Numbered from the stretch's first letter, positions 3,151-44,171 are shown. The stretch: 64,000 nt of DNA from Candidatus Latescibacterota bacterium (GCA_965206595.1 OZ242214.1:672001-736000); one strand, 5' to 3'. Made by a program: numbers and translations. Notes: generated by a model from the letters alone, not told the origin.

Positions 3151-3159
3151 GTGCTCGCC

Positions 3160-26659: not shown

Positions 26660-26831
26660 CAATGCTTTGAAGCTTAATTAAATTATCCAAGTTTAATACA
26701 TGGAGAAATCGTTACTTAATATGGAAAGATCTGTTGGATTTCTTGGAGGAATATATGCTGTATAAACAAGGATATGTGGATATGTACCACACATCGCCGG
26801 CCGACCAGTCGATCCGGTTTTGTAGTGTCAT

Positions 26832-27610
26832 ATGAACCAGAAGATTTTGCTGGAACAATTGCAGGCAGCGGCTGTTGAGTCCAATTCCGATCTAGGGGAA
26901 GTCCTTCGAAAATGCAAGCTCCTCGCTGCTAGGCTGAAAAGTCCGGAATTAGAAAATTGGTTATTGTGGGAGTCGAACGGATACCCAGATGACGCCGATC
27001 TACCGGACTACCGGGTTTGGCCTGTGGAAGTGAAGGGTCACTTTGTCGGACCCTTTGGCACTGGAATTCCCAACGCAACTGTTCCAGAAATCACCATTCC
27101 AGAAGTGCACCGAGAGGCTGCAACTAGATATGAATGTCGTCAAAGCGTAGCAACAATTTCCTCGCTTCTGGCAGATCTCGAGGGCGGTACGTTTCATAGT
27201 AGGAAAAGGAAATCTGGCAGTCATTTTAGGGGACAAGGTTTTTAATGGGCAGAACTGCATCAAAGCCCGGGGCGAATTTGGGAAGTCCCATTTCACCGAG
27301 ATTTTAAACAGTGTACGAAACCGTATTCTGGATTTTGTTTTAGCCATCGAGAGAGAATATGGTGTCGGGGCAAACATGGAAAATTCGGCAACAATAGACC
27401 CACACAAGGTTACTCAGATATTTAATGCCACTGTTTACGGAGGTGCAGCGAATATTGTTGGAATTTCCCGTGGTACAGGTGTATTTCAGGGACTGGGTTC
27501 CGGAGACCTGGACGCGCTCAGTGAAGTGCTGGCATCATCTGGAGTACCAACACAGGACCTCGCGGAATTACGCAAAGCCATTGAGGCTGATCCGGCGCCG
27601 GAGGACGCTA
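26832..27610 (+). pseudogene. AbiTii-domain protein, +1 frameshift and 3' truncation
   Basis: LRKCKLLAARL..LENW..ESNGY..LPDYR; removing one T at 27192-27194 continues as FIVGKGNL..ILNSVRNRILDF..TVYGG. Confidence 0.75.
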
Positions 27611-30263
27611 ACGGGGCCCGACGCCGGGGCGATCTCGTCGCTCGACAAGGCCGTGTAGGTCAGCGCCCCGCCCTCCGGGTCGCGGAAGCGGCCGGCCAGG
27701 TACAGATTCGCCGCCTCCCCCTCCACCTTGAGGATCTGCGCCGGCAGGCCGGCACCCAGGGTCAAGCCGTACGGTTCCTTCAGGCCGGAGGTGATCAGGT
27801 CTTCCACATCGCTGCCGTCCAGGTTGGCGCGCTGGATCTTGTCGGTGCCGTAGTCGGTCCAGTACATCTTGCCGCCTCCCAGGTCGAGGGCGATCGCCTG
27901 AGAGGTTCGCAGGCCTTCGGTGACCAGATCCTCCACCTCAGTGCCATCGAGATTGGCTCGCTGGATTTTATCGGTACCCCAGTCGGGCCAGTACATCTTG
28001 CCGGCTGCCAAGTCGAGAGTGATGCCCCGGGGTTGATTGAGGCCGGTCACCAAGTCCTCGACCTCGGAGCCGTCGAGATTGGCTCGCTGGATTTTGTCGG
28101 CGCCCCAGTCGGTTCAGTACATCTTGCCGCCGGCCACGTCGAGGGCGATGCCGTAGGGCTCGTTCAAACCGTCGGTGACCAGGTCCTCGATTCCGGTGCC
28201 GTCCAGGTTGGCGCGCTGGATTTTGTCGATGCCCCAGTCGGTCCAGTACATCTTGCCTCTGGCCAGATCGAGGGCGATGCCGAACGGCTCCTTCAAGCCT
28301 TCGACGACCAGGTCCTCTGCGTGGCTGCCGTCCAAGTTGGCGCGCCGGATCTTGTCGACGACGCTGTCGGTCCAGTACATGCGGCCGGCGTCCCGGTCGA
28401 GAGCGATGTCCCGGGGCTGCTTAAGCCCGGTTACTAGGGTGCGGATGTCACTGCCGTCGAGGTTGGACCGCTGGATCCGGTCGCTGCCGGCGTCGGTCCA
28501 GTAGACCAGGGACACGGCTACCGGGGCCTGGTTGTCCGCAACGGACGGAGTCCGGGTCAGGGCCAGGCCCCGCGGACTCTGCAAGCCCTCGGTCACGAGG
28601 TCTTCCACCTCGGAACCGTCGAGATTGGCGCGCTGGATCTTGTCGGTGCCGCTGTCCGCCCAGTAGAGCTTGCCCTCGGCCACATCCAGGATGAGACCCC
28701 GGGGGGTTTCCAGGCCGATGGTGACCAGGTCTTCCACCTCAGTGCCGTCGAGGTTGGCGCGCTGGATCTTGTCGGTGCCGCTGTCGGTCCAGTAGAGCTT
28801 GCCGCCGGCTACATCGAGAGCCAGGCTCAACGGCGACTGCAGGCCGGTGACGAGGTCTTCCACTTCGGAGCCGTCGAGGTTGGCACGCTGAATCTTGTCG
28901 GTACCGTTGTCGGACCAATAGAGCTTGCCCGCAACCGCGTCGAGGGCCAGGGCCAAGGGGGTCTGCAACCCGGTTGTCACCAAGTCTTCCAACTCGCTAC
29001 CGTCGAGATTGGCTCGTTGGATTTTGTCGGTGCCGTAGTCGGTCCAGTACAGCTTGGAGGCCGCCGCGCCACGACCAAGCCGCGCGGATAGACCAGGCCG
29101 CTGTCGACGACGTCCTCGACCCCGGAGCCATCGAGGCGGGACCGCTGGATCTTGTCGCTGCCCGCGTCCGTCCAGTAGAGCCGCGGTCCTTCGTCATCTG
29201 CCCCCACCGGGGCGCCGATCCCATCCGGAAGCGACAGGTCGGACGGGTCCGCATGGTACGCCACGATGAGGCGGGCGTCGGCCAGATCGACCTGACCGTC
29301 CCGGTTGACGTCCCCAAGGGTGATATCCCCGTTGGGAATGGAAAGGGAGGGGTCCTCGCTGTACGAGGCGACCAGCAGGGCGTCGGAGAGGTCGACTTGG
29401 CCGTTGCCGTCGACGTCTCCCAGGAGGCCGCCTGCGGCCACCTTTCCTCGAGGGAGATTGACCAGCGTTTCGACCTGGATATCGACCGGACCGTCCCCCA
29501 CCCGGAACGCCGGGTCGACGTAGGGGATGAGTCCCGGACCCGTGACCGTCAACCCGTAGACCTGCCCTTGGCCGCCGGGGGGGACCCACGACCCTGATGC
29601 TATCGCTCCCGCAGTCCTACCTGATGGATCCGCTGCACCGTCGGTGCCCGGGCTGGCTGAGGTCCCGCCACCGGAGGGAGCTATTCCCGCCGGGCCCACC
29701 GGCCCGTCCAGCAGCACCATCGACCGGGTCAGGCGCTCCCCGCCGGCCAGCAGACGGTACAGGTACACCCCCGTTGCCACACCCCGCCCTGAAGCATCAG
29801 TGGCGTTCCATGTCGCGGTGTGAAAACCGGCCGCCTGTTTCCCGTCGACCAGGGTGGCAACCCGCTGCCCCAGAATGTTGAACACCTCCAGCCGCACCCG
29901 AGTCGGGGCGGGCAGCTGGTACGGGATGATCGTCGAGGGATTGAACGGGTTGGGGTAGTTCTGCCCCAGATGCATGTGCGCCGGCAGAGTGGCGGCCTGG
30001 CGCAGGGCCGCCAGCGGCAGCGCGAAGTAGCCGCTCTCATCGGTGGTGGCGTGCAGCGAGCGGCCCAGCTCGGCGCTGTGGAACAGCCTGACCTGGACCC
30101 CCGCTGCAGGCGACCCCGTGGCAAGAAGCACCCGCCCCTCCAGCAGCGGTTCCGCACCGGCGCCGGATACCAGAACCACTACCACGAGACCGCCCAGGAC
30201 AAGCCTCGTAGGATGGGCGATTTTTTGCGCAAGCTGAGAAATGATCCTTCGATGTTTATCCAT
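27600..30263 (-). pseudogene. Secreted YWTD (LDL-receptor class B) repeat protein with FlgD/T9SS-CTD-like and dockerin-like domains, disrupted
   Basis: LGQNYPNPFNPST domain, GDVDGNGQVD/GDVNRDGQVD, many (L/M)YWTDxGTDKIQRANLDG repeats; 1-bp deletion near 29068, TGG-to-TGA at 28114-28116, truncated after FRDPEGGALTY. Confidence 0.85.
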
Positions 30264-30790
30264 GGCGATTCCCTCGTGGGTTGGTCCTGATGGAACGCGG
30301 TTCAACTTACAACAAAACCGAAGACTTCCCAGCCAGACTGCTGTCTAACCTGGCCATTTTGGTTTTACGTGTTGGCAGAGTCGGTTCGGGGCGGAAAGGC
30401 TCCCTCCATACCCATTCACAACACCGATCGCCACAGTCAGTACATAGCCCTGGCCTTCGGGATGCGCTGCCCGCCAAGCTGGGGTGCGCCCGTCCATGGG
30501 ATCGGTCGGTACCGAGGATGTTTTCCAAAATTGTGGTGTCCTTTAGGTCCCTTGGGAGGGGACTTGCTTCGGCTTCCCGGAAGCCGGGAAGGCCGGGCCT
30601 GGACACCGTTGCCGCACAGAGTGCGCGGGACAGTCTGACCTATTCGCCGTGGCCCCAGGGAGCGACCCTTCGCCCCCTCCGGCTCATTTTATAGGTAATA
30701 GGGGCCAACAGCTCGGAAAAGGACCCTGCAAGTAGGGGAAGAAACCAGCCCAATTGCAGCCGGCCAACAAGAAATCAGAGGGGAGGCGCT

Positions 30791-31275
30791 TCAGTTCTTC
30801 TGCAGGGCCAGCCAGCGTTCCCACCAGAGCCGCACCCGGTCGGGCAGGGCCGGTCCGATGTTCTCGGCCACGCGCCACTGGAAGCGCTTGTCCGGCTCCA
30901 GCTGGGGCTCGTCCGGGTCGTACTTGCACAGCCCCCCCCGTCAGCACGAGCCGCTGGTTCACCCCCGGGGGCAGCTTGCCGCGGTGGATGGGGTTACCGT
31001 CCCGGAACAGGGTCTGGCCCCGCTTGAGGACGATGTTCTCCATGCCGGGGAGATCCCTGTGCCTGTCGGAGACGAGGGCGTCCCGCTCCTCGTCGGTGCG
31101 GTAGCGGCTCTGGCTCCAGGGGACCAGCCACAGGCAGGGGTCGTCGATCAGGGCCAGCTGCCAGCGGAAGTTCGTCCACCTCTCCGGACCGCACCTTCTT
31201 CCAGACGTTCCAGGGGGCGGTCTCCAGGCGTTCCAGCAGATCGGGGCCGAAGACGTCGTCGACGATGAAAATACC
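30791..31275 (-). pseudogene. Fragmented PhyH-family gene
   Basis: IVDDVF, WQLALIDDPCLWLVP, LKRGQTLF..IHRG spread over different frames. Confidence 0.6.
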
Positions 31276-31764
31276 CGCGGCCCCGCCGCAGTTCGAGAGG
31301 GAGTGGAATGGTATCCGTAGGCTCCCCTTGCCGCCGATGGCACCGGAGTGTGTGGTCCAGGACACAGAACCGTGTGCTGGAGCACCCAGGGAGCATCCCC
31401 GGGGGGCAGGCCCATGCACCAAGGCCGGTCATTTTTTTCCTGCAAACTTGGTATGGGTCAGGCACGGCCGTAGGAATAGTATCGCGTCGGGCCAGTGGCG
31501 AAACGAATGCGGACCAGTTTTGCCAGAGGGAGTGGACCGAGGGTCGTTACTAGGGATTTGTGTGAGAAGGGGCACAGCGTCACCCTGGCTAGAGGCGTCC
31601 GTTGGGCCATCGAGGCTCCTGGCCCAGATTTTGCGTCCGAGCAAGAGTAAATCCAGCGTACACCCAATGGGAAGAAAATCCGGGGAGTGCGGAGTCACAC
31701 TACAGGAGTGGGGCCGGAGTGGATGGGGTGGTCAAAATCCGGATCGGTTGGTTGGTACCCTGAC

Positions 31765-33231
31765 ATGACAGAAATGAAAAATCACAGGTCTGAAAGGAGA
31801 AGACTAACCGGTAGAAAACCCGGGCCTATTTGGTCGGGATCATTTGCCGGTTTCGATTTGGTATATCTGCCTGATGATGGACAGAGGCTACTCAAGCCGT
31901 CAGCAAGTACCCTGGTAGGGGAAATGGGAGACCAGGCCGGGCTGCGAGGGAGTCGGGCAATTCATCATTATAACCAGGGGGAAAAGGCGTTCAAGGAACG
32001 GAAATTTCTCGATGCGGCCGGGCACTATATTGCTTCTCAAAAAAGCATGGAGAGTATGTGCGCCGTTTCAGCGCATGCAGCGGCGTTAATGATGGTTTCG
32101 GATCTGAGAGAAGCCGCCAATGGATTCGAAACAGCCAGGGCCCTGTCGCAAAAGCAAAAAGAGATTCCGTTCGAAATTGCGTCTGGGATCAACCTGGGCC
32201 AGGTTTACTCAGATCTGGGCGAGACAGACAACTCGGAAGAGGTATTTGACCGGGCTATCAAAACGGCGAAAGAAAATGGTGTTGGGTCTTTGCTTGCAAT
32301 GGCCATCCATCAAAAAGGACTTCTCCAACTCAGGATCGGAGAATACGAAAAGGCGATGTCCTGCTGCGAGATGGCCCTTACGGTGTTCGAAACGATCCAG
32401 GCAGGAAGGGGGCTCGTAGCCGTGCGTTGTACCATGGGTATAGTTTATCTGTCCCGGGGGCAAATTCGGGAGGCGGAAAAAATATTCGGCGAAAACATGA
32501 GATCGGTCGCAAATCGGCAGATGTCCCAGGATCATGTCCGCATTCTGACGAATTATGCAATTTTACATTTAATGAATAATCGGTTGAACGAGGCAGCGGA
32601 GCTGTTGGCCAAGGTTTTGGAAACGAATACCAGGTTGGGGGATGACCATCACAAGGCAAAAATTTTGGTTTTATCAGGTGAGATATCAGGTACAGACGAG
32701 CCAACATCTGGCCTCTTGTGGATTCAAAAGGGATTGGCCTTAATTAGGGAACTGGAATACAAGAAAGGAGAAGTGGATATTCTCGTCCGTTTAAGCATGC
32801 AACAAGTTGCCATGGGGGATTACAAGGCAGGGAAAATTTCATTGGAGAAGGCCCGTGCGGTGGCGACTGCGATTGGGTATGCCAATGGTAAATTTCGAAG
32901 TGGAAATTCCCTGGCCGAAGTTTATTCGATGGAAGGGCATGGGGAGCGCGCCATGCATATCACGAAAAATATCGTTGAAGCGGCTCGAAAAACCCGGAAT
33001 ATTTTCGAGGAGATAAGGGCGTACGAAAGGATTGGTATCATACTGGTCGGGCAAAACGATGTGTTCCAGGGATTGTCCTATTTTGAAAGGGCCGTGGAAA
33101 TGGCAAACAATGTCGGTTGCCACGTGCTGAAAAGTGAAATGTCGACGAGAATAGGAATGATTTTTGAACTAAAAGGATTGGTTGAGTTGGCTGATGAATT
33201 TAAAGCACGAAGGGTGGTCCTGATGAGCTGA
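31765..33231 (+). CDS. Tetratricopeptide-repeat protein
   Basis: Repeated ~40-aa helical units (NLGQVYSDLGE, GEYEKA, MGIVYLSRGQIREA, SLAEVYSMEG); low GC. Confidence 0.8.
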   Translation: MTEMKNHRSERRRLTGRKPGPIWSGSFAGFDLVYLPDDGQRLLKPSASTLVGEMGDQAGLRGSRAIHHYNQGEKAFKERKFLDAAGHYIASQKSMESMCAVSAHAAALMMVSDLREAANGFETARALSQKQKEIPFEIASGINLGQVYSDLGETDNSEEVFDRAIKTAKENGVGSLLAMAIHQKGLLQLRIGEYEKAMSCCEMALTVFETIQAGRGLVAVRCTMGIVYLSRGQIREAEKIFGENMRSVANRQMSQDHVRILTNYAILHLMNNRLNEAAELLAKVLETNTRLGDDHHKAKILVLSGEISGTDEPTSGLLWIQKGLALIRELEYKKGEVDILVRLSMQQVAMGDYKAGKISLEKARAVATAIGYANGKFRSGNSLAEVYSMEGHGERAMHITKNIVEAARKTRNIFEEIRAYERIGIILVGQNDVFQGLSYFERAVEMANNVGCHVLKSEMSTRIGMIFELKGLVELADEFKARRVVLMS

Positions 33232-33388
33232 ATGAATTAACATGACACTAGTTGAGACGGGCGTCAGATTGGGGGCGCAGGGTGATCGAGGACAAGATGA
33301 AATTTCGCGGAAACGAACCCGAATTTCAGGCCCTTGTTGAGGGAGGCCACTCCTTTACCAAATTCATAACCTTGAAAGGGCTAGACTT

Positions 33389-33613
33389 ATGAAACCATTG
33401 AAGAAACCTTCATACAGGGACTACGATGCATCGGGCAACGTCGATGCCTATCACGATGAGTTGACAGGTTTGAAGTTCTTTGTTTGCGGTTTAGCAACTG
33501 TTGCTGCATTAGCTTCTTCAGTGATTACTGGGCCGCTCGGCGGGGCACTGGCGGTTTCGTCAGCCTTGCACTGTGGCTTTATCACCGCTGTAAGCTACGG
33601 CTGGTTTGGTTGA
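33389..33613 (+). CDS. Putative secreted peptide/bacteriocin-like precursor (74 aa, two Cys)
   Basis: GAAAGGG RBS; charged ~24-aa N-terminus and hydrophobic Gly/Ala/Ser-rich core; directly upstream of export genes. Confidence 0.7.
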   Translation: MKPLKKPSYRDYDASGNVDAYHDELTGLKFFVCGLATVAALASSVITGPLGGALAVSSALHCGFITAVSYGWFG

Positions 33614-33624
33614 TGAAAACGAAC

Positions 33625-33685
33625 GAGGCTTGAATTTGAGCCTCCAGATTTAATCTGAAGGAGATGGCCTCCCTCACTTTTATTT
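33625..33685 (+). terminator. Hairpin series plus T-tract after the peptide gene
   Basis: GAGGCT..AGCCTC, CAGAT-TTA-ATCTG, GGAG..CTCC, then CACTTTTTATTT. Confidence 0.4.
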
Positions 33686-33821
33686 GTGGCGAATATGAAG
33701 GAACATGTAACTGTCTGAAAGAATGGAAGAGAGTCCAGGGTAAGCATGGGGTGTAACTCATAAATGAGAAAAAGAGTCTGAGTTTGGTCCCTACCCCCTC
33801 GAATCGGAAATTCAGATAAAA

Positions 33822-35447
33822 ATGCTAAAAGTTTGGTGGTACATGACATGGCTCCGTTTAAAGGTCGAGCGAACTGAATCAAAATCGGGTCCTGGAAGTT
33901 ATGCCGTTAAAATATCGGGGGAGATAGCGATCCTGGTCCTCTCGCTCTGGGCCTCGGCAGGCGTACACCACGCGTTGCTTCATGCTATGGGTAACGAGGG
34001 CTTGATGGTTCGGGAATTGCTTCACGCATTGTTTGCCGGTTTGTCGGTGGTATGGGTGGTTCTAGGGCTCAAGAGTATCCTGAGTACTTCTGTTTGTAAG
34101 GACCTTCGCGAAACCGTCAAGTATCCATGGACCTACAAACAGGTTTACGCTGCCGGAGTGGTTAGAACCCTTTCTGACCGATGGCTGATTATGTTTGCAC
34201 CTGTTTTGGTCTCTTCGGCGATGGCATGTGGATTGTTGAAATCAATAAAAACCGGACTTATCTGCGGTTTTTCAATGATTGCGTTTGCTGTGCTGATGGT
34301 AAGCTGGATTCAGGCGTTGCGTTCGTGGATAGATATTTCCCTTAGTTGGTGGATATCCAAATACGGTTTGGTCATACTTACAAGCTTAGCTTTCCTCATG
34401 GTAAATCTGATGTTGGCTTTGCTTCTTTTGAAGGATGGGTACATGCAGGAAATGATAACTCAATTAGGAAAACTTCGTTTGTCTTCCTATCTCAGATTTA
34501 CACCACCGGGCATGCTCGGTGATATTTTCTATTTTCTGAGTCGGGGAAGAACTTATGATTCGATAGTCTGTTTCCTTGGGCTTATGGGATACCTCTCATT
34601 GGGGTATCTCGTGTCACGCAGAAGCACCATGAGTCTGATCTTCAACGAACCCTCGGTTAGTAGAGGAAGTCAGGGGCTACCAGGCAATATTTATTTTAAA
34701 ATGTGTGGCATTGCGGAGCGCTTTCTTCCCATGAAGTATATCCCTTTTTTTACCCACGAGCTATTATATCTTTGTAGATGGAATCAGTTCCGGGTAATGG
34801 CCGTTTTCCAAGTAGTTATTGCCTGGTGCATGTCTGTAGTAGTCCTTTCGGCACGGTTTGAGTACTATTGGGCCTTCTTGGTTTTCTATTTCGGGGGAAT
34901 GAGTGGTTTCATGCACTCCCTCTTCAATAAAGAGTCTAAAGGTGTTGTTCACCACTTTCTTTTGCCGATTCATTTACGAGATGTGCTTATCAGTAAAAAT
35001 TTGGCATTGGTATGTCTTCAGATTTTCATTAACTGGATGTATCTTCCAGGGATCCTTTTCTGGATCTGGCAAGGGAAGGAAACAGACCTGACACTGGCCC
35101 TTGCATTGATTCCATTCACCGTTTGCGTTCCCATTTACGTTGCCGCGACAGGAAATTTTTCATCCGTTTTTTTTCCAAAGAAACTCAAATCCTTTGGTTC
35201 GATGAGTCAGAGATCCTGGTCGATTCAAAGTGTTTGGTTGATTTTAATTGCCTGGCTGCCCGCGGTTATTTTTATCGGAATCAACGTTTACGTTTTCCAT
35301 TTTGTCTTACGTTCCCCACAATTGACGATTTTCAGCTTTTTCCTAGTTTTTCTAGTGAGTCTGGGTACCTACTTTTTTGCCATCAAAAAATCATCAGCTC
35401 TTATGAAATCCAGACAAGAAAAACTGCTGCAAGTGCTTTTCAAATAG
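33822..35447 (+). CDS. Polytopic membrane protein, ABC exporter permease
   Basis: Many TM segments; LLPIHLRDVLISKNL ABC-2-like motif; adjacent to ATPase. Confidence 0.75.
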   Translation: MLKVWWYMTWLRLKVERTESKSGPGSYAVKISGEIAILVLSLWASAGVHHALLHAMGNEGLMVRELLHALFAGLSVVWVVLGLKSILSTSVCKDLRETVKYPWTYKQVYAAGVVRTLSDRWLIMFAPVLVSSAMACGLLKSIKTGLICGFSMIAFAVLMVSWIQALRSWIDISLSWWISKYGLVILTSLAFLMVNLMLALLLLKDGYMQEMITQLGKLRLSSYLRFTPPGMLGDIFYFLSRGRTYDSIVCFLGLMGYLSLGYLVSRRSTMSLIFNEPSVSRGSQGLPGNIYFKMCGIAERFLPMKYIPFFTHELLYLCRWNQFRVMAVFQVVIAWCMSVVVLSARFEYYWAFLVFYFGGMSGFMHSLFNKESKGVVHHFLLPIHLRDVLISKNLALVCLQIFINWMYLPGILFWIWQGKETDLTLALALIPFTVCVPIYVAATGNFSSVFFPKKLKSFGSMSQRSWSIQSVWLILIAWLPAVIFIGINVYVFHFVLRSPQLTIFSFFLVFLVSLGTYFFAIKKSSALMKSRQEKLLQVLFK

Positions 35448-35460
35448 GGAAGGCCCAGAA

Positions 35461-36240
35461 ATGAACGTAGCCATATCCGCACAAAACCTGATCAAGGAAT
35501 TCGGGCCTGTCACTGCTGTGAAAAATCTTTCCCTTTCCATAAACGAAGGAACCTTTTTCGGTCTCCTTGGAACCAACGGGGCGGGAAAGACAACAGCCGT
35601 TGGGATGCTTTCCGGGTTGCTCCAACCCACGTCAGGTATCGTCCAGATCCTTGGTAAGAACTTTCACCTCCATGGGATCGAAATTAAACGCCAACTCGGT
35701 GTTATGACAGACACCCTTGGCCTGTACGAACAATTGACTGGAGCGGAGTACCTCGCATTTATCGGCAAAGTTTTCTCCATCCCCGACCGGGTTATCTTCG
35801 CCAGGTGTGAAGAATTATTTGAATTGATGGGTTTGGCAGCTGCGCGCAACGGGTTCATTTATAGATATTCCTCGGGGATGAAGAAAAAGCTTTACCTGGC
35901 CTCCTTATTCATCAGGTCTCCCCGCGTTTTAATTATGGACGAACCTTTCGAGGGAATTGATCCGGCCTCCGCAATAGTCATACAGGAGGTCCTCCTCTCC
36001 ATGCAGGATCGGGGAATCACCATTTTTCTCACCTCTCATAATCTGGAACTGGTTGAAAAGCTTTGTTCGAAGGTTGCCATAATGCATGAGGGAGAGATCA
36101 TTCACACGGCCAAACGGGACCGTTATCCGCCCGCCGCAGGGAGAGTTTCCGGCCTGGAGAAAGTTTTCCTGGAGCTCGTGCGTCACCCCGGTCAAGGCGG
36201 GAACCTCTCCTGGCTGAATGCAGGGCCGTCTCCGGTATAG
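35461..36240 (+). CDS. ABC transporter ATP-binding protein
   Basis: GTNGAGKTT, YSSGMKKK, LIMDEP, TSH. Confidence 0.95.
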   Translation: MNVAISAQNLIKEFGPVTAVKNLSLSINEGTFFGLLGTNGAGKTTAVGMLSGLLQPTSGIVQILGKNFHLHGIEIKRQLGVMTDTLGLYEQLTGAEYLAFIGKVFSIPDRVIFARCEELFELMGLAAARNGFIYRYSSGMKKKLYLASLFIRSPRVLIMDEPFEGIDPASAIVIQEVLLSMQDRGITIFLTSHNLELVEKLCSKVAIMHEGEIIHTAKRDRYPPAAGRVSGLEKVFLELVRHPGQGGNLSWLNAGPSPV

Positions 36241-36348
36241 TGTCCTGTCCACAAATACCCAAACCGTCGCTTCCGCTTCCTCCGCCAATCCGTCCTGTCT
36301 TCACGCTTTCGCGGCTTTCCCCCACCTGATGGATGCAGCTGATGCAAG

Positions 36349-38163
36349 ATGGGCTTCTTTCGACAACTTGAGCTAGCGCGGCAAAGGGGCTTTACCCTCC
36401 GCCAGGTTTTTACCTCCAGCCCGTCACCGGGTGTGGGACGATTCCTTTTTTTGCGGCTGCTTTTCTTTTTTCAGCCCTACTGGATTCGGGTAATCGAAGC
36501 CGCCGCCTGCATGGTCTTCTCCACTGTATTGGCCCTTCCCATGCCCTTGTTCTCCATTTACATAATCGACCATATTATCGTGAACCATCAGGAGGATATT
36601 CTCCATTTGGTCTGCGCTGTGCTAGGGACCATTGTCCTTTTGGGAATGGTTTTGAGTTTTTTACAGCACTATTTGCTGCTGATATTTACCAGACGGGTGT
36701 TTTTCGATATAGAACTGAAATTGTTTCAAAAGATTCATTCGGTACCACTCTCCTATTTGAAAGCCCACGCTAGCGGCTACATTGCCACAAGAATCAGCGA
36801 CGATGTCAGGCAGCTTGGGTCCATGATGGCCGGAGCCTATATCGAAGGACTCAGCAGCATCACCGTTTTAGTCGCCGCGACCTGCATCATGTTCACCATT
36901 AACGCGGAATTGGGCTTTGCCGTCCTTGTTGTGTTACCGGGGATTGTTGCCGTCAATTTTTTGTTTGGGCGCAAAGTCCAGGTGCTGAGTGACCGGGTGC
37001 AGGAGCGAAAGGGCATCACGAATGCTGTCCGGTTGGAGTCCCTGGAATCGGCGCACGTAGTCAGGGCGTTCGACCGGGAAAAATTGGAAGCACGTCGGCT
37101 TGTGTCCGCCTTGCACTCCGAATTCGACGCCGATCTGTCCAGAAATGTCACCATGACCTGCGGCCATCTGGTGCAGGTTTTTCTCTATGCTCTCGGCGGA
37201 ATTCTCCTGCTGTGGTACGGGACCTACGCAATCATGCGCGACGAGCTGACCCTCGGTGAATTCATGGCCTTCAATATGCTGGTTTCCTATATATACGGAC
37301 CGATAGGGCAGCTCACTGGAATTTACCTGAACTTCAAGCGAGGAGTAGGAGTCTTGAAACGGGTTTTTGGGGTTCTGGATGTTCCGGAAGAAAAAGGACG
37401 AGGCGGAAGCTTTCGGAGCCCAGCAAAGACTGGAAAAGTTGTCATTGAGGATTTGCATTTTGGGTACATTCCCCAGCTTCCGGTATTGAAGGGAGTAAAC
37501 CTCGTCCTTGAACCTGGAAAAATATCTGTCGTAGTGGGGCCCAGCGGGTCCGGAAAAACCACCTTGGTTCATCTTCTGTTACGGCTGTACGAGCCGATTT
37601 CGGGTCGAATGCTGCTCGACGGGTACGATTTTCTATCATATGACGTACGCGTGCTTCGCCGGAACGTCGCGCTTGTCGAACAGAACCTCCGGTTGTTTCC
37701 CGGGACCATTTGGGAGAATATCGCCTACGGCAAGCCGGGGGCTACCAAGGAGGAGGTTCTGGCTGCGGCGGAATCCACCAATTGCATGGAGTTCATCAAC
37801 CGGTTTCCAGCCCGCTTGGAGACGCGGCTTAGTGGCGACGGCGTCCAACTTTCCGCCGGGCAGAAGCAGCGCGTTGCGTTAGCCCGCGCCCTGATCCGGG
37901 ATCCCAGACTTCTCGTGCTGGACGAGGGCACCGCCTCACTTGATCCACGGGCGGAAAATCTCGTTGGGGACTCGTTGCGCCGCGCCGCGCAGGGCCGTAC
38001 GACGCTACTGGTCGCCCACCGTCTTTCCACGGTGTTGTTCGCAGATCGAATTTTCGTGCTGGTGGGGGGCCGGATCGTTGAGGAGGGTACGTTACAGGAG
38101 CTTCTTCGAACGGGGGGGCATTTCACCACCATATACGAGCAGAACTTGAAGAGGGCAGGATGA
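36349..38163 (+). CDS. ABC exporter (TMD+NBD), HlyB/SunT-like but lacking a C39 peptidase domain
   Basis: PLFSIYIIDHII, LTLGEFMAF, GPSGSGKT, LSAGQKQR, LVLDEGT, VAHR. Confidence 0.9.
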   Translation: MGFFRQLELARQRGFTLRQVFTSSPSPGVGRFLFLRLLFFFQPYWIRVIEAAACMVFSTVLALPMPLFSIYIIDHIIVNHQEDILHLVCAVLGTIVLLGMVLSFLQHYLLLIFTRRVFFDIELKLFQKIHSVPLSYLKAHASGYIATRISDDVRQLGSMMAGAYIEGLSSITVLVAATCIMFTINAELGFAVLVVLPGIVAVNFLFGRKVQVLSDRVQERKGITNAVRLESLESAHVVRAFDREKLEARRLVSALHSEFDADLSRNVTMTCGHLVQVFLYALGGILLLWYGTYAIMRDELTLGEFMAFNMLVSYIYGPIGQLTGIYLNFKRGVGVLKRVFGVLDVPEEKGRGGSFRSPAKTGKVVIEDLHFGYIPQLPVLKGVNLVLEPGKISVVVGPSGSGKTTLVHLLLRLYEPISGRMLLDGYDFLSYDVRVLRRNVALVEQNLRLFPGTIWENIAYGKPGATKEEVLAAAESTNCMEFINRFPARLETRLSGDGVQLSAGQKQRVALARALIRDPRLLVLDEGTASLDPRAENLVGDSLRRAAQGRTTLLVAHRLSTVLFADRIFVLVGGRIVEEGTLQELLRTGGHFTTIYEQNLKRAG

Positions 38164-38603
38164 GAATCCCGGCAACAATCGAATGGCGCGCGGGTGCCAT
38201 GCTCGTCGGGGCGGCCGCGGTTTTCCTCCTTCTGCTGATTGTCCTTACGGTGACGCGCATGGATGTGGGGATGGAAGTCGAGGGGAAGATCATGCTCACA
38301 GAGACGGGTTGGGTAATGACCACCAAGGTTCCTGGGGACCGGGTCGCTTTTTTGCACAGGTGCAGGCAACTCAAAATCCGGAGCCGTGGAAATGAGGTCA
38401 GGTACGTGGAGGTCGGAAAGGTAAGTGGATGCCTAGCGGACGGGGAGCCCTCGGTTGCAGTGCGGATCGAAATCGACGGGACAGGGGGCGATGCAGCCGG
38501 GACGGACTCCTTTCAGGTGGTAGAAGCTACGCTCGTGCAAGAGCAAGGGGTGTCCATCCTGAGAGCCCTGTTCTCCAGTATCCTGGATCGCCCCGGAGTT
38601 TAG
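38160..38603 (+). CDS. Minimal HlyD-like membrane-fusion/adaptor protein
   Basis: ATGA overlap with exporter; TM anchor, VEGKI, beta-rich body, SILRALF tail; only 147 aa. Confidence 0.55.
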   Translation: MRIPATIEWRAGAMLVGAAAVFLLLLIVLTVTRMDVGMEVEGKIMLTETGWVMTTKVPGDRVAFLHRCRQLKIRSRGNEVRYVEVGKVSGCLADGEPSVAVRIEIDGTGGDAAGTDSFQVVEATLVQEQGVSILRALFSSILDRPGV

Positions 38604-38756
38604 GGCTTGCCACTATCAACTTAGCTGCCGGGGCCATGTTTCCACGGCGCAGAATTTCCATGGTTTTTCGGGTCACCATTCCCCGTGAATCCTTACGGGA
38701 GGCACTTCGTGGTTTACGCTTTCCACAATAGTGGATTCAAGCTGAGACTGAGACTT

Positions 38757-39383
38757 ATGAGAAGTCGCCGCAGACTCATTGCAACGTCAATTTTGTCAGG
38801 CATCCTGGGAATCGCAGCTTTCGGGCTCCTGTGGTTTCACAACCGGTACGGCGTCGAAAACATCATCCTCACAGGGCACACCTTTCCGCGCCTTGAGCTC
38901 ACGGATCTTGCGGGAGAGACCGTTGACCTCGACAGCTTTCGCGGCAAGAAGATAATCGCCGTGTTCCTCGATCTGGGTTGCGGTTATTGCCAAGAACAGC
39001 TCAAAGTCCTGGACGCAATACACCACCAGCATGGGCAGGACGGCAAATTCTCCATAGTAGCTGTTGCTACCTACGGCTCCGTTGTGCCTCGAAACTTCCA
39101 GTCCGGTGATGCTTTTTCCTTTCCGCTCTGGATGGAATCCAAGCTTCAACTACGAGAAAAACTCGGAACCTCAGCTGTCCCGGCACTGTTTCTCATCGAC
39201 GAGGAAGGCATCCTGTTGCATAAGCACGTAGGTTATAAGGCCTTTCGGCAAGTCCGAGGAATCATTGATTCCATGGTTCAGGATCACAAGTCCCGGTGTC
39301 CTCTCTCATCAATCCCTCGCTATTCCACCGGCGGTCCGTCCGGGCTGTCGGCGTTGCCTTCAGTCGCCCGTTCTCCCCGGTAA
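38757..39383 (+). CDS. TlpA/ResA-like membrane-anchored thioredoxin
   Basis: N-terminal TM, LTDLAGETVDLDSFRGK, CGYC, VPALFLIDEEG. Confidence 0.88.
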   Translation: MRSRRRLIATSILSGILGIAAFGLLWFHNRYGVENIILTGHTFPRLELTDLAGETVDLDSFRGKKIIAVFLDLGCGYCQEQLKVLDAIHHQHGQDGKFSIVAVATYGSVVPRNFQSGDAFSFPLWMESKLQLREKLGTSAVPALFLIDEEGILLHKHVGYKAFRQVRGIIDSMVQDHKSRCPLSSIPRYSTGGPSGLSALPSVARSPR

Positions 39384-39431
39384 GACTCGCCCCTCCGGTT
39401 TGCGCAAACCGATTGCCTGAACTGCGGATAC

Positions 39432-40118
39432 ATGGCTTTTCTTCCTTCCCTGCGACGCCTGGCCCTGGTGATTTTCTCGCCTTTCCTCGCATTCGACGAA
39501 ATTTCCGAACAGCCGACCTGGATATGCGCATATTTCACAATCGCTTTTGCAACTGCCATTTCGGCCTGGTATACTACCACGGTTTTTCAGCAGACCTTGT
39601 TCCTTGTTCCTGGTACTCTTCCGGATTCCCAGGCAGCTGGCGTATCATCGATCGAACAGGCAGTAAGGTATGCATCTACGGCGGTTTCCTTTTTCGTAAC
39701 TTTGCTTTCCTGGTCCGTTTCCGCGTTTCTACTCTGGTTGATTATTCAAATCTTCGAGGGATTGGCCAGCATCAAATCGATCTTGTCGGTGGTTGCGCAC
39801 GCAAGCGTCGCTACCCTGCTCCACGTTGTAACGGGATCGATCATCCTTTTCATCCGAACCCAAAACGGCGAGCTTGCCCCTGAGATTCTGCAGATAAGAA
39901 TGGGGCTCGATCTCTTTTGGAAAGAGACGACCCACCCTGTCCTGAATGTGATCCTTGCGGACGTCAATCCGTTCAAGGTGTGGTATAACTTTCTTCTGAC
40001 TCTCGGTATTCAAAGGGCCTGTCGATTCAGCTGGCTGCGCGCCGGCGGCATCGTTGGCGTGTTTTGGCTGGTAACACTCGCCTTGTGGGCCGGTTTCACC
40101 TTCGTGCTGCCGTCATAA
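39432..40118 (+). CDS. Yip1-family membrane protein
   Basis: IFSPFLAFDEISEQPTW start, about 5 TM, NPFKVW. Confidence 0.75.
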   Translation: MAFLPSLRRLALVIFSPFLAFDEISEQPTWICAYFTIAFATAISAWYTTTVFQQTLFLVPGTLPDSQAAGVSSIEQAVRYASTAVSFFVTLLSWSVSAFLLWLIIQIFEGLASIKSILSVVAHASVATLLHVVTGSIILFIRTQNGELAPEILQIRMGLDLFWKETTHPVLNVILADVNPFKVWYNFLLTLGIQRACRFSWLRAGGIVGVFWLVTLALWAGFTFVLPS

Positions 40119-40248
40119 CCCTCATCGGCTTACAGCGCCCGTGGAAGCTCCATCCGAGCAGCCTCCCCGGCGCCCGGGAACCCGGTGTTGCGCTTGCCTC
40201 CTCGGCAGCCCTGTGGTAGACTCCAGCGCCATCTGCCCCTCCAACCTT

Positions 40249-41049
40249 GTGCTTTTAACCACCATCCTGGCCGTGACCCTCCTGTCCGGCCTTTACACCT
40301 CTCTCTGGGGCGCCTTCAAGGACTCTCCCTTCGAGGGGTTCAAGCCGCGAACCTTCCCTCGCAGCATCTGGTTCAGCCTCGCCATTTTCCTGGTGCTGTA
40401 TACCCTTCCCCCGTTCAGCCATCGCCTGGCCGGAGTCGGGATGTTCCAGCTCTTCTTCCTGGTCATGGGGATCGAGCGGTTCCTCGCCGAGATCTACAAG
40501 GGCTTCTTCCGCACCGAAGACCAGGAGAAGTACTTCGTCCCCTCCCAAATCACCTTTTTCGGGCGGCACGTCGAGAGCGATCTCCTGCGCTACAGCGCCG
40601 GCACCGTGATCGTCGCCGCGGTGTTCGCCGTGACCCTCATAGAGATCCCCGTCGAGCGCTTCCTCTGGTTCGTCCTCATTGCCTACGCCACCGGGTTGGT
40701 TGTGTCCCTCGGAGGTGCCTACAAGGACGCCCCGTTCGAGGGGTTCAAGCCCCTGAAATTCCAGCGCTCCGGTCTCGTGCTGGCCCTTCTCAGCCCGCTG
40801 TTCTACTTCCTTAACGATCCCACCGCCCCGGTTTCGGCCGGGTTCCTCATCTACATGAACGGCGGCCTCGAGCGCTTTTCCGTCGAGTACTACAAGACCT
40901 ACGTGCAACGCAACATGTCCGGGAAGTTCCGCCCGGATCTCGTGCGTCTCGAGCAGTTCGTGCAGACCCGGGAGAAATTTCACTATCTCGCCCTGGTGAT
41001 CGTCGCCGCCCTTGCGGTGCTCTACGTCGTCGAGGTGCGCGCCTTGTAA
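40249..41049 (+). CDS. Hypothetical membrane protein with internal duplication
   Basis: GAFKDSPFEGFKPRTFPRS and GAYKDAPFEGFKPLKFQRS; GIERF..EIYK and GLERF..EYYK. Confidence 0.7.
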   Translation: MLLTTILAVTLLSGLYTSLWGAFKDSPFEGFKPRTFPRSIWFSLAIFLVLYTLPPFSHRLAGVGMFQLFFLVMGIERFLAEIYKGFFRTEDQEKYFVPSQITFFGRHVESDLLRYSAGTVIVAAVFAVTLIEIPVERFLWFVLIAYATGLVVSLGGAYKDAPFEGFKPLKFQRSGLVLALLSPLFYFLNDPTAPVSAGFLIYMNGGLERFSVEYYKTYVQRNMSGKFRPDLVRLEQFVQTREKFHYLALVIVAALAVLYVVEVRAL

Positions 41050-41090
41050 TTCCCCCCCGTTTCCGCCTGATTCCTCGGCGGAGACATTCC

Positions 41091-42578
41091 GTGAAATACG
41101 ATGCCGTCATCGTCGGTTCCGGGTTCGGCGGGGCCTGCGCCGCCTACCGCCTGGTCCGTGCCGGCCTGAAGACCCTCCTGGTCGAGCGCGGGGGCTGGCC
41201 GCACCGGGACGAGTGGGACTGGAACCAGCGGCAGATTCTGATCGAGAAGCGATACCGGTCCGCCTCGCCGGTGTCGGTGCGTCAGTACGGCGCCAAAGAA
41301 GCGGAGCCGCTCTATCCGAACGAGGTGGTCGGCGGCAACTCGGTCTTTTTTGGTGGAGCTTCCCTGCGCCTGCGGGAAACCGATTTCGAGAAGTGGCCGA
41401 TCGCCTACGACGAGCTGGAGCCGTACTACGCCGAGGCCGAAAACCTGTTGGCCGTTCACGGCGAGACCGGAACCGACCCCTGCGAGCCGCGGCGCTCCGC
41501 TCCCTATCCGCGGGCCCCGGTCGACCTCGCCCCCCCTGCCCGACGCATCCGGTCGGCCGCGGAACGGCTCGGCCTCAAACCGTTTCCCCTGCCGATGGCG
41601 ATCAACTTCGACGATCCGCAACGGCCCCTCTGCATCCGCTGCTCGACCTGCGACGGGTTCCCGTGCCGGATCGAGGCCAAGAACGACATGACGGCGACGG
41701 CGCTGCGCCTGGGGCAGGAGGCCGGCCTCGAGATCGTCGCCGGCCTGGCGGCGACGCACCTGGAGGTATCGGGGGGCCGCGTCGAGGCCCTGCATGGGGT
41801 GGCCGTCACAGGCGAGCCGAAAACCCTCGTCCTGGAAGGGGAGCGTTTCTTCATCGCCGCCGGAGCGCTGCAGACCCCCGCCCTGCTGCTGCGGTCGCGC
41901 CTCGACTCGCCCGGGGCCCGGTGGATCGGCCGCTGCCTGATGAGGCACTGCAATGGGGTGGTCGCCGGGGTCTTTCCGTTTCGCACCAACCCCGGGAATC
42001 TCTTCCACAAGCAGCTCTGCTTCACCGAGTTCTACGAGCGCTTCCGCGCCCGGCACGGCACCGCCGCCGGGGTCATCCAGGATATCTACACTCCGTCGAG
42101 CGAGGTGATCTCCCACTTCGCTCCTTTCGGGCTCAAGCGGATCGCCGGGGCGTTCGGACCCTTCATGCAGAACCTGCTCTGCATCGCCGAGGACGAGCCG
42201 CGCTTCGAAAACGCCGTGCGCCTCGGCGGCGGCAGGGACGGCTGGGGGGTGGAGATTCCCCGCGTCGACCACCAGTACAGCGCGGCCGACCTAGAGCGCC
42301 GTGATTTCCTCGCGGCCCAGGCCCGCCGGGTGCTCAGGGCGGCCGGGGCGTGGAAGACGCGGATGTACGAGATCGACACCTTCTCCCATGCGGTCGGCAC
42401 GGTGCGCTGCGGCGACTCCCCGGAGCGCGGAGCCCTCGACCGCGACTGCCGCGTCTGGGGACTGGAAAATCTCTACGTCGTCGACGGCAGCTGCTTCCCT
42501 GCCTCGGGGGGCGTCAACCCGAGTCTCACCATCGCCGCCAACGCCCTGCGCGTGGCCGACGTGGGGGGCGCGGCGTGA
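41091..42578 (+). CDS. GMC family oxidoreductase
   Basis: IVGSGFGG, VGGNS, HAVGTVR, NLYVVDGS, NPSLTIAANALR. Confidence 0.92.
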   Translation: MKYDAVIVGSGFGGACAAYRLVRAGLKTLLVERGGWPHRDEWDWNQRQILIEKRYRSASPVSVRQYGAKEAEPLYPNEVVGGNSVFFGGASLRLRETDFEKWPIAYDELEPYYAEAENLLAVHGETGTDPCEPRRSAPYPRAPVDLAPPARRIRSAAERLGLKPFPLPMAINFDDPQRPLCIRCSTCDGFPCRIEAKNDMTATALRLGQEAGLEIVAGLAATHLEVSGGRVEALHGVAVTGEPKTLVLEGERFFIAAGALQTPALLLRSRLDSPGARWIGRCLMRHCNGVVAGVFPFRTNPGNLFHKQLCFTEFYERFRARHGTAAGVIQDIYTPSSEVISHFAPFGLKRIAGAFGPFMQNLLCIAEDEPRFENAVRLGGGRDGWGVEIPRVDHQYSAADLERRDFLAAQARRVLRAAGAWKTRMYEIDTFSHAVGTVRCGDSPERGALDRDCRVWGLENLYVVDGSCFPASGGVNPSLTIAANALRVADVGGAA

Positions 42579-43534
42579 TGCGGGTCGGCCTCGCCGGCTG
42601 CGGCGCCATCGGCAGGAAGCACGCCGGCACCCTGCGGGGCCGGGCGGGCCTGCTGTTTTTCAGCCGAACCCGGGCCCGAGCCGAGGAGTTCGCCCGGGAG
42701 TTCGGCGGCGAGGTGTGTGCCTCCTTCGAGGAGCTTCTCGAAAGGGCGGACGGGGTGGTCATCGCCACGCCCCCGGAGCGGCACGAGACCGAGACGGTCG
42801 CCGCCCTCGCTTCCGGGGCCGCCGCGGTTCTCGTCGAGAAACCGCTCTGCCACGAGCCGGACCAGCTCCCCCGCATCGAGGCGGCCGCGGCCCGGCATCC
42901 CGGAACCACCCTGATGGTCGCCGAGAACTACTACTACAAACCCTCCCTGCTGAAGCTGAAGCAGCACATAAGATCGGGGGACCTCGGCGAGATCGAGCGC
43001 ATCGAGGTGAAGAAGCTGAAGGAGCAAAAGGCCTCCGGGTGGCGGGCCGCCCACGGGTCGCTGCTGGAGGGGGGCATCCATTTCGTCGCCCTGGTCGCCG
43101 ATCTGCTCGACGCTGCAACCGGAAGCGAATGCGGCAGGCCGCAGCTGGTAAATGCGGAATTCCCCGGCCGGCAAAGCAGCGAGGCGGAGCGCCACGCCGT
43201 CGTCGCGCTCGGGGCGCCTGGCGGGCCGGAGGCGGAGATCCGCTACGCTTGGAACGTGCCGTCGCCGACCGGGGGGGTGTTCCAGCATTCCCGCATCGCC
43301 GGCAGCGAGGGCGGGGTGCTGTTCGAGAGCAACGGGATATACCACTGGGTGCGCTCGCAGCGGCGCCGGGCCCTGGAGTTCCCCGGCTTCGGCGACATGA
43401 TGGGCTACCGGGGGATGATGGAGGATTTCCTCGCCTGCCTGGAAGACCGGGGCCGTTCACCGTACTCGAACCTGGCGCGCGCGCGCCGCGACCTGCAGAT
43501 CGTATTCGATGCCTACCGCCGGCTGGAAGGGTAG
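42578..43534 (+). CDS. Gfo/Idh/MocA oxidoreductase
   Basis: GLAGCGAIG, IATP, VEKP, EGGIH; TGATG coupling. Confidence 0.88.
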   Translation: MRVGLAGCGAIGRKHAGTLRGRAGLLFFSRTRARAEEFAREFGGEVCASFEELLERADGVVIATPPERHETETVAALASGAAAVLVEKPLCHEPDQLPRIEAAAARHPGTTLMVAENYYYKPSLLKLKQHIRSGDLGEIERIEVKKLKEQKASGWRAAHGSLLEGGIHFVALVADLLDAATGSECGRPQLVNAEFPGRQSSEAERHAVVALGAPGGPEAEIRYAWNVPSPTGGVFQHSRIAGSEGGVLFESNGIYHWVRSQRRRALEFPGFGDMMGYRGMMEDFLACLEDRGRSPYSNLARARRDLQIVFDAYRRLEG

Positions 43535-43741
43535 CGCCGGTTTACCGCAAGTCGCCGCAGGCGAGGTCCGCAAACCCCACAAAACGAGGCGGGACGGTCG
43601 GATCGGACGGAGACCGCAGTGCTCGGAACCGCCGGACCGGCTGCCGGGGGGCGAGGATGGACCGGCGGAAGAAGGACGGGGTACCTTTCTGGGACGAAAC
43701 TGAATTCCGAACGAAATCGTATTTCCGCGACAGGAGATTTC

Positions 43742-44146
43742 ATGACCCTGCACAAGGAACACACCGAGCGGTTCAAACAACTCGCCGAGGACGCGAGGAG
43801 CCGCATCCGCGAGACGACCGCCGACGCGATCAAGGAGCGGATCGATTCGGGGGAGGAGTTCCATCTCGTCGACGTCCGCGAAGAGAGCGAGTGGGCGGAA
43901 GGTCACCTGCCCGGGGCCTTCCACCTCGGCCGCGGCATCATCGAGCGGGACATCGAGGAGCACTTCCCCGACTACGGGGAGGAGATCGTCCTGTACTGCG
44001 GGGGCGGCTACCGCTCGGCCCTGGCCGCGGACAGCTTGCGGAAGATGGGGTACGCCAACGTGATTTCCATGGACGGGGGCTACCGCGGCTGGACAGACGC
44101 GGGGTATCCGGTAGATGGGATCGGCAGCCCGGGGAATGCCGGGTAG
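43742..44146 (+). CDS. Rhodanese-like sulfurtransferase
   Basis: VDVREESEW, GHLPGA, LYCGGGYRS, SMDGG; AGGAG RBS. Confidence 0.92.
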   Translation: MTLHKEHTERFKQLAEDARSRIRETTADAIKERIDSGEEFHLVDVREESEWAEGHLPGAFHLGRGIIERDIEEHFPDYGEEIVLYCGGGYRSALAADSLRKMGYANVISMDGGYRGWTDAGYPVDGIGSPGNAG

Positions 44147-44171
44147 GCCCATTCAGAAAGGGGAGGGAGTT

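Follow-up and report, generated by a model that had tools for sequence, protein, structure and literature searches.

Class II bacteriocins of Gram-positive bacteria are exported by systems such as LcnC/LcnD and ComA/ComB, with the thioredoxin-like PedC as an accessory protein, and pumps of the LanFEG type give lantibiotic producers their self-protection. Of the characterised systems, the closest to the locus studied here is that of the bacteroidetocins, a proposed class IIf from Bacteroidota whose loci encode a five-transmembrane (TM) protein, a four-cysteine peptide with a double-glycine leader of 15 residues, a thiol oxidoreductase and a peptidase-bearing ATP-binding cassette (ABC) exporter, each of them needed for secreted activity, the disulfides being inferred there (PMC6671954). 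In Bacillus, YknWXYZ is reported to confer protection against the peptide toxin SDP (PMC4887032), and the CLI_3235-type cluster of SacP23 combines TIGR04066, a TIGR04069 protein related to acyl carrier proteins (ACP) and a subtilase with an ABC transporter and a radical SAM maturase, all with roles assigned in silico (PMC10731318). In this work, we analysed 64,000 nucleotides from a Candidatus Latescibacterota bacterium (GCA_965206595.1 OZ242214.1:672001-736000), a stretch which we call the window and which corresponds to G000:C1:672001-736000 in our genome set, where G000 is a single contig of 7.05 Mb. The subject is a low-GC island in the window (31283..40281, plus strand) that encodes a 74-aa peptide together with a set of transport and accessory proteins.

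Latescibacterota are uncultured, and the locus offers a compact and concrete candidate, a 9-kb island with one 74-aa product. Our judgement leans, by a modest degree, towards reading the island as a self-contained locus for a bacteriocin-like, disulfide-stapled helical-hairpin peptide, its export and the protection of its producer. This interpretation is supported at the comparative-genomic level. What was observed directly is which genes are present and in what order they are kept, a leader that is conserved while the cores diverge, peptide genes amplified in tandem, even numbers of cysteines and the behaviour of the island; that the peptide is membrane-active and a bacteriocin is our inference. 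Families of the block proteins were assigned with the Pfam and NCBIfam model libraries at their own cutoffs, and ESM-Atlas neighbours were consulted in addition.

Results

Peptide genes and their leader

The peptide gene (33389..33613, plus strand), which was delimited from its ribosome-binding site (RBS), alignments, an orthologue in G001 and an AF2 model, encodes a precursor with a leader of approximately residues 1-24 and a hydrophobic core of about 50 residues, rich in Gly, Ala and Ser, that contains Cys33 and Cys62. Its RBS, GAAAGG, stands 8-9 nt before the start. The G001 orthologue is 92% identical, with seven synonymous and six non-synonymous codon differences.

When the permease of the island was searched against 41 related genomes, the four matches were G000 itself, G001, G035 (27%, 8e-44) and G019 (26%, 3e-16). 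According to tblastn, these loci keep the same gene order, from a tetratricopeptide repeat (TPR) gene across a gap to the genes for permease, ATPase, exporter, a 147-aa protein, a redoxin that is not always present, and a Yip1 protein; the gap between TPR and permease genes holds one small ORF in G035 and three in G019. A scan of 185,579 species genomes gave five confirmed loci among 38 pattern matches and so added two contigs to the set, one with four tandem copies, while a metagenome scan with the TPR alignment as query gave three further contigs, confirmed among at least 594 pattern matches. Syntenic loci are present in eight further Latescibacterota genomes or contigs, with one to four peptide genes directly downstream of the TPR gene. 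A peptide gene at the same position with a canonical RBS was found in G000, G001, G035, G019, G160, G167, G003 and the metagenome contigs L018 and L019, and every copy has GAAAGG or GGAAGGAG as RBS 7-9 nt before its ATG. The first-pass annotation of the window, made from its sequence alone, had proposed a comparable small ORF in syntenic loci as a check, and the ORF is indeed there: in all nine loci of this kind for which DNA beside the TPR gene is available (type A in the following), the TPR gene lies directly 5' of one or more peptide genes.

On L018 and L019, the TPR gene is followed by the leader-bearing ORF, and on L018, the only one of the two that reaches far enough, the exporter gene comes directly after it. 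The precursor leader and hydrophobic core of these two contigs are in different frames (L018 6999-7228, L019 9927-10107), the break point differing between them, and the intact form of this precursor subtype, 77 aa long, is found in G003.

Alignment of ten peptides shows where the family is constrained. M1, L4, K6, P7, Y12, A20 and Y21 are invariant and V18 is nearly so, all of them within residues 1-21, and the hydrophobic remainder after residue 21 is just 18-38% identical, which gives the leader consensus M-x-x-L-x-K-P...Y...V-x-A-Y-x-D/E followed by a variable core. Against 1.84 billion representative proteins, the ten-peptide profile found 13 matches at E<=1e-3 and 8 at E<=1e-10. A word search of 5.8 billion proteins with the single peptide returned only itself (one match of three candidates), the same search with the permease returned only a 93% orthologue, and no source name was attached to any of 30 members from nine clusters (eight peptide clusters and the permease cluster P0002). 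A leader-only model of 26 positions recognised nine of the 168 Latescibacterota genomes (G000, G001, G002, G003, G019, G035, G160, G166 and G167), with three to four leader copies per genome in the four genomes of genus g18. Over the 101,996 six-frame segments of G000, the 74-aa gene was the sole match of the leader HMM at 39.9 bits, the next best segment reaching 12 bits. Judged by these comparisons, the small ORF is a real gene family with a previously unnamed leader type outside Pfam and NCBIfam. A literature search that did not extend to subscription journals found no description of Latescibacterota peptide toxins or of bacteriocin loci combining Yip1, thioredoxin and ABC genes, and one on DUF1611 found nothing relevant.

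We also considered a spread of the family to Gemmatimonadota and rejected it, as two 'Gemmatimonadaceae' contigs match the peptides and coordinates of G160, which belongs to the window's own GTDB family. Because these contigs coincide with genus-g18 Latescibacterota genomes, no cross-phylum spread is claimed. The public label of L012 and L013, 'Gemmatimonadaceae', conflicts with their GTDB-based placement in the window's Latescibacterota family.

A cassette slot in the chromosome

Two genomes of the same genus delimit the island. G001 carries the whole block at 92-99% protein identity. G002 is without it: in blastn of window 27000-45000 against the G002 locus, the DNA matches up to 31282 and again from 40282 at 89-94% identity, and the slot between is filled by 4,991 bp of other low-GC DNA (0.40-0.55). 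That cassette (L034, G002:C3:3830500-3840500, positions 1994-6332, minus strand) encodes a 401-aa full-length HlyD-type protein, a 579-aa ABC exporter 31% identical to that of the window, a 125-aa hydrophilic protein and an Rce1-like CPBP membrane protease, the CPBP family being known for bacteriocin self-immunity. Because G002 holds a different low-GC cassette between the same flanks, the block is a swappable, horizontally acquired island; together with blastn, the GC profile gives its limits, and GC drops relative to the flanks in the loci of G000, G001 and G035. At the island edges, boundary repeats amounted to short chance matches alone, and neither an integrase nor a tRNA was found. A 302-aa membrane protein (mem302, 40141-41049), which was tried as a member of the system, was rejected as native flank, since its DNA is 89% identical in the island-free G002.

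Gene content of the island

Between 31765 and 40118 lie eight ORFs on the plus strand, all intact and separated by spacers of -4 to 208 nt, and GC over 32001-40000 is 0.44-0.57 in 1-kb windows vs 0.60-0.70 in the flanks, whose GC is about 67%. The first-pass annotation had described a co-oriented, low-GC block of eight intact genes, and every item of its description agrees with our ORF calls, Pfam and NCBIfam searches and GC profile. Neither the peptide nor the permease (541 aa) nor the 147-aa protein matched a Pfam or NCBIfam family. A scan of 30300-41200 gave no promoter or terminator signal (8 promoter-like sites vs 6.7 expected, 14 terminator-like sites vs 15.2 expected), and the RNA fold of the peptide-permease spacer is unremarkable (z = -0.75). 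Among the sequencing-run rows listed, DNA of the locus occurs in 20 rows from seven studies, and none of the listed rows is an RNA dataset.

The first gene (31765..33231, plus strand, alternative GTG start at 31687) encodes a TPR protein of 488 aa that matches TPR_12 (1.2e-22) and other TPR models; it has no TM segment, and no HTH domain was found at E<=0.01 in Pfam or NCBIfam. The G002 cassette has no such gene, and L017, a contig with the other cargo type described below, has a truncated one, so that the gene tracks the hydrophobic cargo and not the leader. The TPR proteins share an invariant N-terminal L-P-D-D-G...P motif at residues 35-45, ahead of the repeats.

The peptide gene is followed by an ABC pair on the plus strand. 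The 541-aa permease (33822..35447), with 11-13 hydrophobic segments and syntenic homologues of 23-27% identity, is classed as ABC-2/12-TM exporter-like after its nearest ESM-Atlas clusters (12TM_1/ABC_tran_2/ABC_export, 0.96-0.98). The 259-aa ATPase (35461..36240; ABC_tran 3.9e-24) resembles the DrrA/lantibiotic-protection type, matching the NCBIfam models TIGR01188 drrA (6e-58) and TIGR03740 (1.7e-41), both under cutoff.

The exporter, of 604 aa (36349..38163, plus strand), is an ABCB-type half-transporter with ABC_membrane at residues 50-318 and ABC_tran at 380-529. The absence of a C39 peptidase domain noted in the first-pass annotation holds, because the membrane domain starts after just 49 residues. 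Its sequence matches in the PDB include ABCB1, TM288, Sav1866, MsbA and BmrA, as well as PCAT (9e-76) and HlyB (2e-75). The gene for the 147-aa protein (38160..38603, plus strand) overlaps the exporter gene by 4 nt. This protein has a TM segment at 13-31, and its AF2 model, built from a six-sequence alignment (pLDDT 67.5), places a beta domain, assigned to the extracytoplasmic side, behind the N-terminal TM helix. The top Foldseek matches in the PDB are the beta-barrels of MexA, ZneB, BesA and MacA (weak matches, E 0.011-0.07, none <=0.001), and in ESM-Atlas it adjoins unnamed clusters, the nearest named one being LcnD_C/AprE beta-barrel at 0.92; a metagenome scan with its alignment gave five pattern matches, none of which was confirmed. 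In these models, it resembles a reduced adaptor of the membrane fusion protein (MFP) or LcnD type.

The last two plus-strand genes encode a membrane-anchored TlpA/ResA-like thiol-disulfide oxidoreductase and a polytopic membrane protein. The oxidoreductase, of 232 aa (38685..39383), matches AhpC-TSA (1.5e-12), Redoxin (2.6e-11) and ResA (4.6e-15), has a TM anchor at 31-49 and carries, at 99/102, a CxxC in register with the active site of ResA; its gene is present in the loci of G000, G001 and G035. The 228-aa protein (39432..40118) belongs to the Yip1 family (PF04893, 7.2e-11, 42.7 bits, above cutoff) and scores 57.2 bits against the YknW family NF052650, under its cutoff of 110. The Yip1 gene is kept in all loci extending that far.

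Two neighbouring regions of the window may be recorded here. The left flank at 27400-30300, including a 442-aa ORF on the minus strand (28977-30305), belongs to a large paralogous family: G001 contains 101 matches to this DNA and G002 contains 58, with identities of 65-87%. At 24734-27245 there is another low-GC block (0.44-0.46) with four co-oriented ORFs of 346, 120, 177 and 137 aa.

Cysteine pattern and predicted hairpin

The first-pass annotation had also proposed to look for two conserved cysteines in the small ORFs, and even numbers were found throughout: all 21 aligned type-A peptides have an even number of cysteines in their cores, 11 with two and 10 with four, although the count overstates independence because the compared sequences are kin. 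The first cysteine lies directly behind the leader in 19 of the 21. In the four-cysteine subtype, positions 26, 35, 60 and 71 give pairwise sums of approximately 96 around a turn at about residue 48, a spacing that would fit nested staples across an antiparallel hairpin. Cysteines are lost in pairs, and the losses agree for the most part with nesting: two peptides retain 35 and 60 alone and P0007 retains 26 and 76 alone. In the window peptide, Cys33 and Cys62 sum to 95, with a T-G-P-L-G-G turn at the centre. An AF2 model from the 21-sequence alignment contains helices at 19-43 and 49-69 in a helix-turn-helix arrangement (mean pLDDT 66), which is consistent with a hairpin, not proof of one.

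Two cargo types with one leader

The leader is not confined to hydrophobic peptides. The type-A cargo is a hydrophobic hairpin peptide of 66-98 aa, while type-B loci, found in G002, in the metagenome contig L017 and at a second locus in G035, encode a hydrophilic protein of 117-137 aa that starts with M-x-x-h-x-K-P...V-x-A-Y-x-x-E as in type A. At each type-B locus, between one and three CPBP proteases accompany a full-length HlyD protein and an ABC exporter. An exporter tree of 15 rows (nine locus exporters and six G000 paralogues, without outgroup and midpoint-rooted for drawing) places the type-A exporters in one clade (100/100) and the type-B exporters in a separate clade (100/100), which are not sisters.

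At L057 (G035:C1:3893000-3910000), we noted a big low-GC type-B island in which three paralogous CPBP genes each have a partner gene for a TPR protein with a signal peptide. The same region has a transposase-like ORF, an exporter fragment, a GNAT-like gene, another S8/TIGR04066 fusion of the kind described in the next section, and two or more hydrophilic proteins with the leader (137 and 134 aa).

Putative maturation module

The first-pass annotation had seen neither a protease nor a modification enzyme in the block, and within the operon this stands, since a Pfam scan of the eight proteins found no glycosyltransferase, DUF95, LanM, YcaO, radical SAM or protease domain. It does not extend to the wider system, because the operons of relatives carry a subtilase fusion and a homologue lies elsewhere in G000 itself. 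The fusion, of 641-652 aa, joins an S8 part to a TIGR04066-like part and follows Yip1 in five loci, namely G035, G019, G160 (L012), L013 and G167, with an ATGA overlap or a 13-nt gap at the junction. A signal peptide is absent, and the catalytic Asp of the subtilase falls among the first 25 residues. The fusion scores 157 bits against a QhpE-like S8 model (cutoff 165) and, over 357 of the 361 model positions, 138.7 bits against TIGR04066 'peptide maturation system protein' (cutoff 200). It is also found beside type-B cargo: in L017, it is followed by a PP-binding protein and then by a 368-aa protein without family, and the second G035 locus is likewise adjoined by such a fusion.

The homologue of G000, 58-60% identical, lies outside the window at C1:588.2-590.1 kb (region L014/L015, G000:C1:587924-591628), 113 kb from the island, and its neighbours are an ACP-like gene, a 391-aa protein related to the 368-aa protein of L017 (34%, 8e-53) and a MacB-like pump. 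The homologue is one open frame in G001 (693 aa) and in G002 (707 aa), but in G000 the frame of the S8 part is not that of the TIGR04066 part, owing to a frameshift or else to an error of assembly. Of the 168 Latescibacterota genomes, 88 encode the TIGR04066-like part, with up to seven copies each. In a divergent TIGR04066-like subgroup (e.g. G113, G031, G034, G116, G033, G115, G004, G137, G152 and G107), a single in-frame TGA recurs, which may point to selenocysteine or to pseudogenes.

Discussion

Proposed working of the locus

We propose that the core of about 50 residues behind the hydrophilic leader of about 24 residues folds into a helical hairpin. The cytoplasmic TPR protein may hold the hydrophobic precursor as a chaperone or gatekeeper, with a regulatory role as the alternative, and a cytoplasmic subtilase/TIGR04066-like module would recognise and probably remove the leader, in trans here and in cis in relatives. 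Export from the cytoplasm would fall to the ABCB-type exporter, together with the single-TM adaptor whose translation is coupled to it, and the anchored CxxC redoxin might make or proofread a disulfide between Cys33 and Cys62, by which the hairpin would be stapled at its open end. Yip1 and the ABC-2 permease with its ATPase could shield the producer, in analogy to LanFEG and YknWXYZ.

Several observations weigh against this scheme. A single leader-specific exporter lineage had to be rejected, and because the two exporter clades are not sisters, one exporter lineage does not explain the common leader. The genus-g18 loci are without the redoxin although their peptides mostly have four cysteines, and redoxins of the ResA/TlpA type are typically reductants, not oxidants. 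P0006 retains Cys26 and Cys35 alone, contrary to nested pairing, and the structure models are of moderate confidence (pLDDT 66-68) with weak Foldseek matches. Full MFPs use an alpha-hairpin to reach the outer-membrane channel, and because the adaptor has no such hairpin, it does not account for exit from a diderm cell. Removal of the leader is uncertain in this genome, because the operon is without a protease or C39 domain and the G000 module is split over two frames.

Alternative explanations

The alternative that survives best, which we nevertheless consider unlikely, is a further-modified, ribosomally synthesised and post-translationally modified peptide (RiPP), whose leader mainly directs the precursor to the S8/TIGR04066/ACP/391-aa module for cleavage and for modification of the core or the N-terminus, for example acylation from the carrier protein, so that the product would be a modified peptide or lipopeptide. 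It would accommodate a leader type that is common to two non-sister exporter clades and co-occurs with the fusion in both type-A and type-B loci, and it draws on the nearly complete coverage of TIGR04066 and the QhpE-like S8 match, on the PP-binding and conserved 368/391-aa proteins that accompany the module in L017 and G000, and on G000 having exactly one leader-bearing gene for the module. However, both model scores are under their cutoffs, and the module is unlinked and split over two frames in G000. As it occurs in 88 genomes and the leader, as detectable, in nine, the module is therefore not specific to the leader. For TIGR04066, no chemistry is known, its role being assigned in silico (PMC10731318).

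A less probable explanation, and one that we regard as doubtful, is that there is no antagonistic toxin at all, and that the product is a signalling peptide or a small membrane protein which stays with the producer; the TPR protein would then be a receptor or regulator of the RNPP-like kind, and the transporters would serve insertion, turnover or the export of a signal. In its favour are a weak RNPP_C match of the TPR protein (24.5 bits) and an adaptor without the alpha-hairpin to reach the outer membrane, and a hydrophobic hairpin could be seated in the inner membrane so that its open end, with the two cysteines, points to the periplasm. However, the RNPP_C score is under the cutoff of 26.5, and no HTH or other DNA-binding domain was found in Pfam or NCBIfam, which does not place the protein among the RNPP regulators; a 50-residue hydrophobic core is also atypical for pheromones. 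A conserved hydrophilic leader on a divergent and tandemly amplified membrane part is the opposite of what a partner-packing subunit would show, and the low-GC island is exchangeable, its allelic counterpart holding a CPBP gene of the immunity type.

A generic efflux or detoxification operon with a fortuitous small ORF, to which an exporter equally similar to the multidrug/lipid exporters MsbA, BmrA and Sav1866 and a DrrA-like ATPase might point, is hardly credible, as a small ORF with RBS and leader keeps its place even though the other proteins of the loci are just 23-56% identical, and as its profile finds 13 clusters at E<=1e-3.

Beyond the bacteriocin-like locus that we favour, a broader proposal can be made, although we offer it tentatively and would not rely on it: an undescribed leader-guided secretion and maturation system of Latescibacterota, in which the K-P...A-Y leader would address two unrelated cargoes, disulfide-stapled hydrophobic hairpins and soluble proteins of about 100 aa. 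Both cargoes would pass through the subtilase/TIGR04066/ACP module, possibly with a new modification, and the hairpins would additionally need the TPR chaperone and the one-domain adaptor; together they might form a new class of bacteriocins, carried by exchangeable cassettes at fixed slots. If the TPR protein does chaperone a hydrophobic secretion substrate, or if TIGR04066/ACP does modify a peptide, protein families now without a function would gain one. The leader motif and the TPR/peptide/ABC-2/ABCB/mini-adaptor/Yip1 neighbourhood provide a signature for finding such loci, which may otherwise be overlooked because leader and neighbourhood match no Pfam or NCBIfam model tested.

Relation to described systems

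The likeness to bacteroidetocins is drawn at the domain level from descriptions. Both involve a diderm producer and a small cysteine peptide whose gene has those for a multi-TM protein, a thiol oxidoreductase and a dedicated ABC exporter beside it. Our locus differs in its K-P...A-Y leader, in an exporter without C39 and in the added TPR protein, ABC-2 pair and mini-adaptor. The window leader ends in V-x-A-Y-x-[D/E] with no conserved Gly-Gly in the alignments, and it matched no bacteriocin-precursor model in Pfam or NCBIfam.

LcnC/LcnD-type export likewise has a leader-bearing, small hydrophobic or cysteine-containing peptide, a dedicated ABC exporter, a single-TM accessory and a redox accessory for disulfides, but here there is no double-glycine leader and no C39, the accessory is much shorter, and the phylum and cell envelope are different. 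Glycocins such as sublancin 168 and glycocin F share two helices, disulfide staples, oxidoreductase genes and an ABC exporter with the proposed product and its locus. The operon has no glycosyltransferase, however, the cores are far more hydrophobic, and a double-glycine leader and C39 exporter are absent; the glycosyltransferase genes near the G035 and G019 loci are of the GT28/GT4 type and are not kept across loci. DUF95/SpoIIM of circular bacteriocins was not found in the operon, and LanB/C/M/KC/L, radical SAM and YcaO proteins were not found among the eight proteins or in the scanned flanks of related loci. The first-pass annotation had judged that the block fits neither the glycocin nor the circular template, a judgement that our comparison confirms and extends to lanthipeptides, sactipeptides and double-glycine class II peptides.

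Class II TPR chaperones of type III secretion, SycD/LcrH, offer an analogy only, that of a cytoplasmic all-TPR protein encoded beside a hydrophobic helical-hairpin secretion substrate; the window protein has a weak NCBIfam match to this type (1.4e-4) but is three times longer. In YknWXYZ, too, a Yip1-family protein is reported to work with an ABC pump and a protein of the MFP type, the target being a peptide toxin that is hydrophobic. YknYZ is of the MacB/FtsX type, however, and YknX is a full MFP, whereas the pumps here are ABC-2-like and ABCB-type, and the YknW score is under cutoff. The CLI_3235/TIGR04066 cluster of SacP23 resembles the loci of relatives in that an ABC exporter and a precursor rich in Cys have a subtilase, a TIGR04066-like and an ACP-related protein as neighbours; in G000, this trio is 113 kb away. 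Here, subtilase and TIGR04066 are fused and the precursor has no CLI_3235 family match; a radical SAM maturase was not present in the proteins scanned at the examined loci, no genome-wide TIGR04068 search having been made. By sequence comparison, therefore, the locus fails the defining tests of the double-glycine, glycocin, circular, lanthipeptide, sactipeptide and YcaO classes, and it looks like a previously undescribed variant of a bacteriocin locus, for which the bacteroidetocins provide the nearest characterised counterpart.

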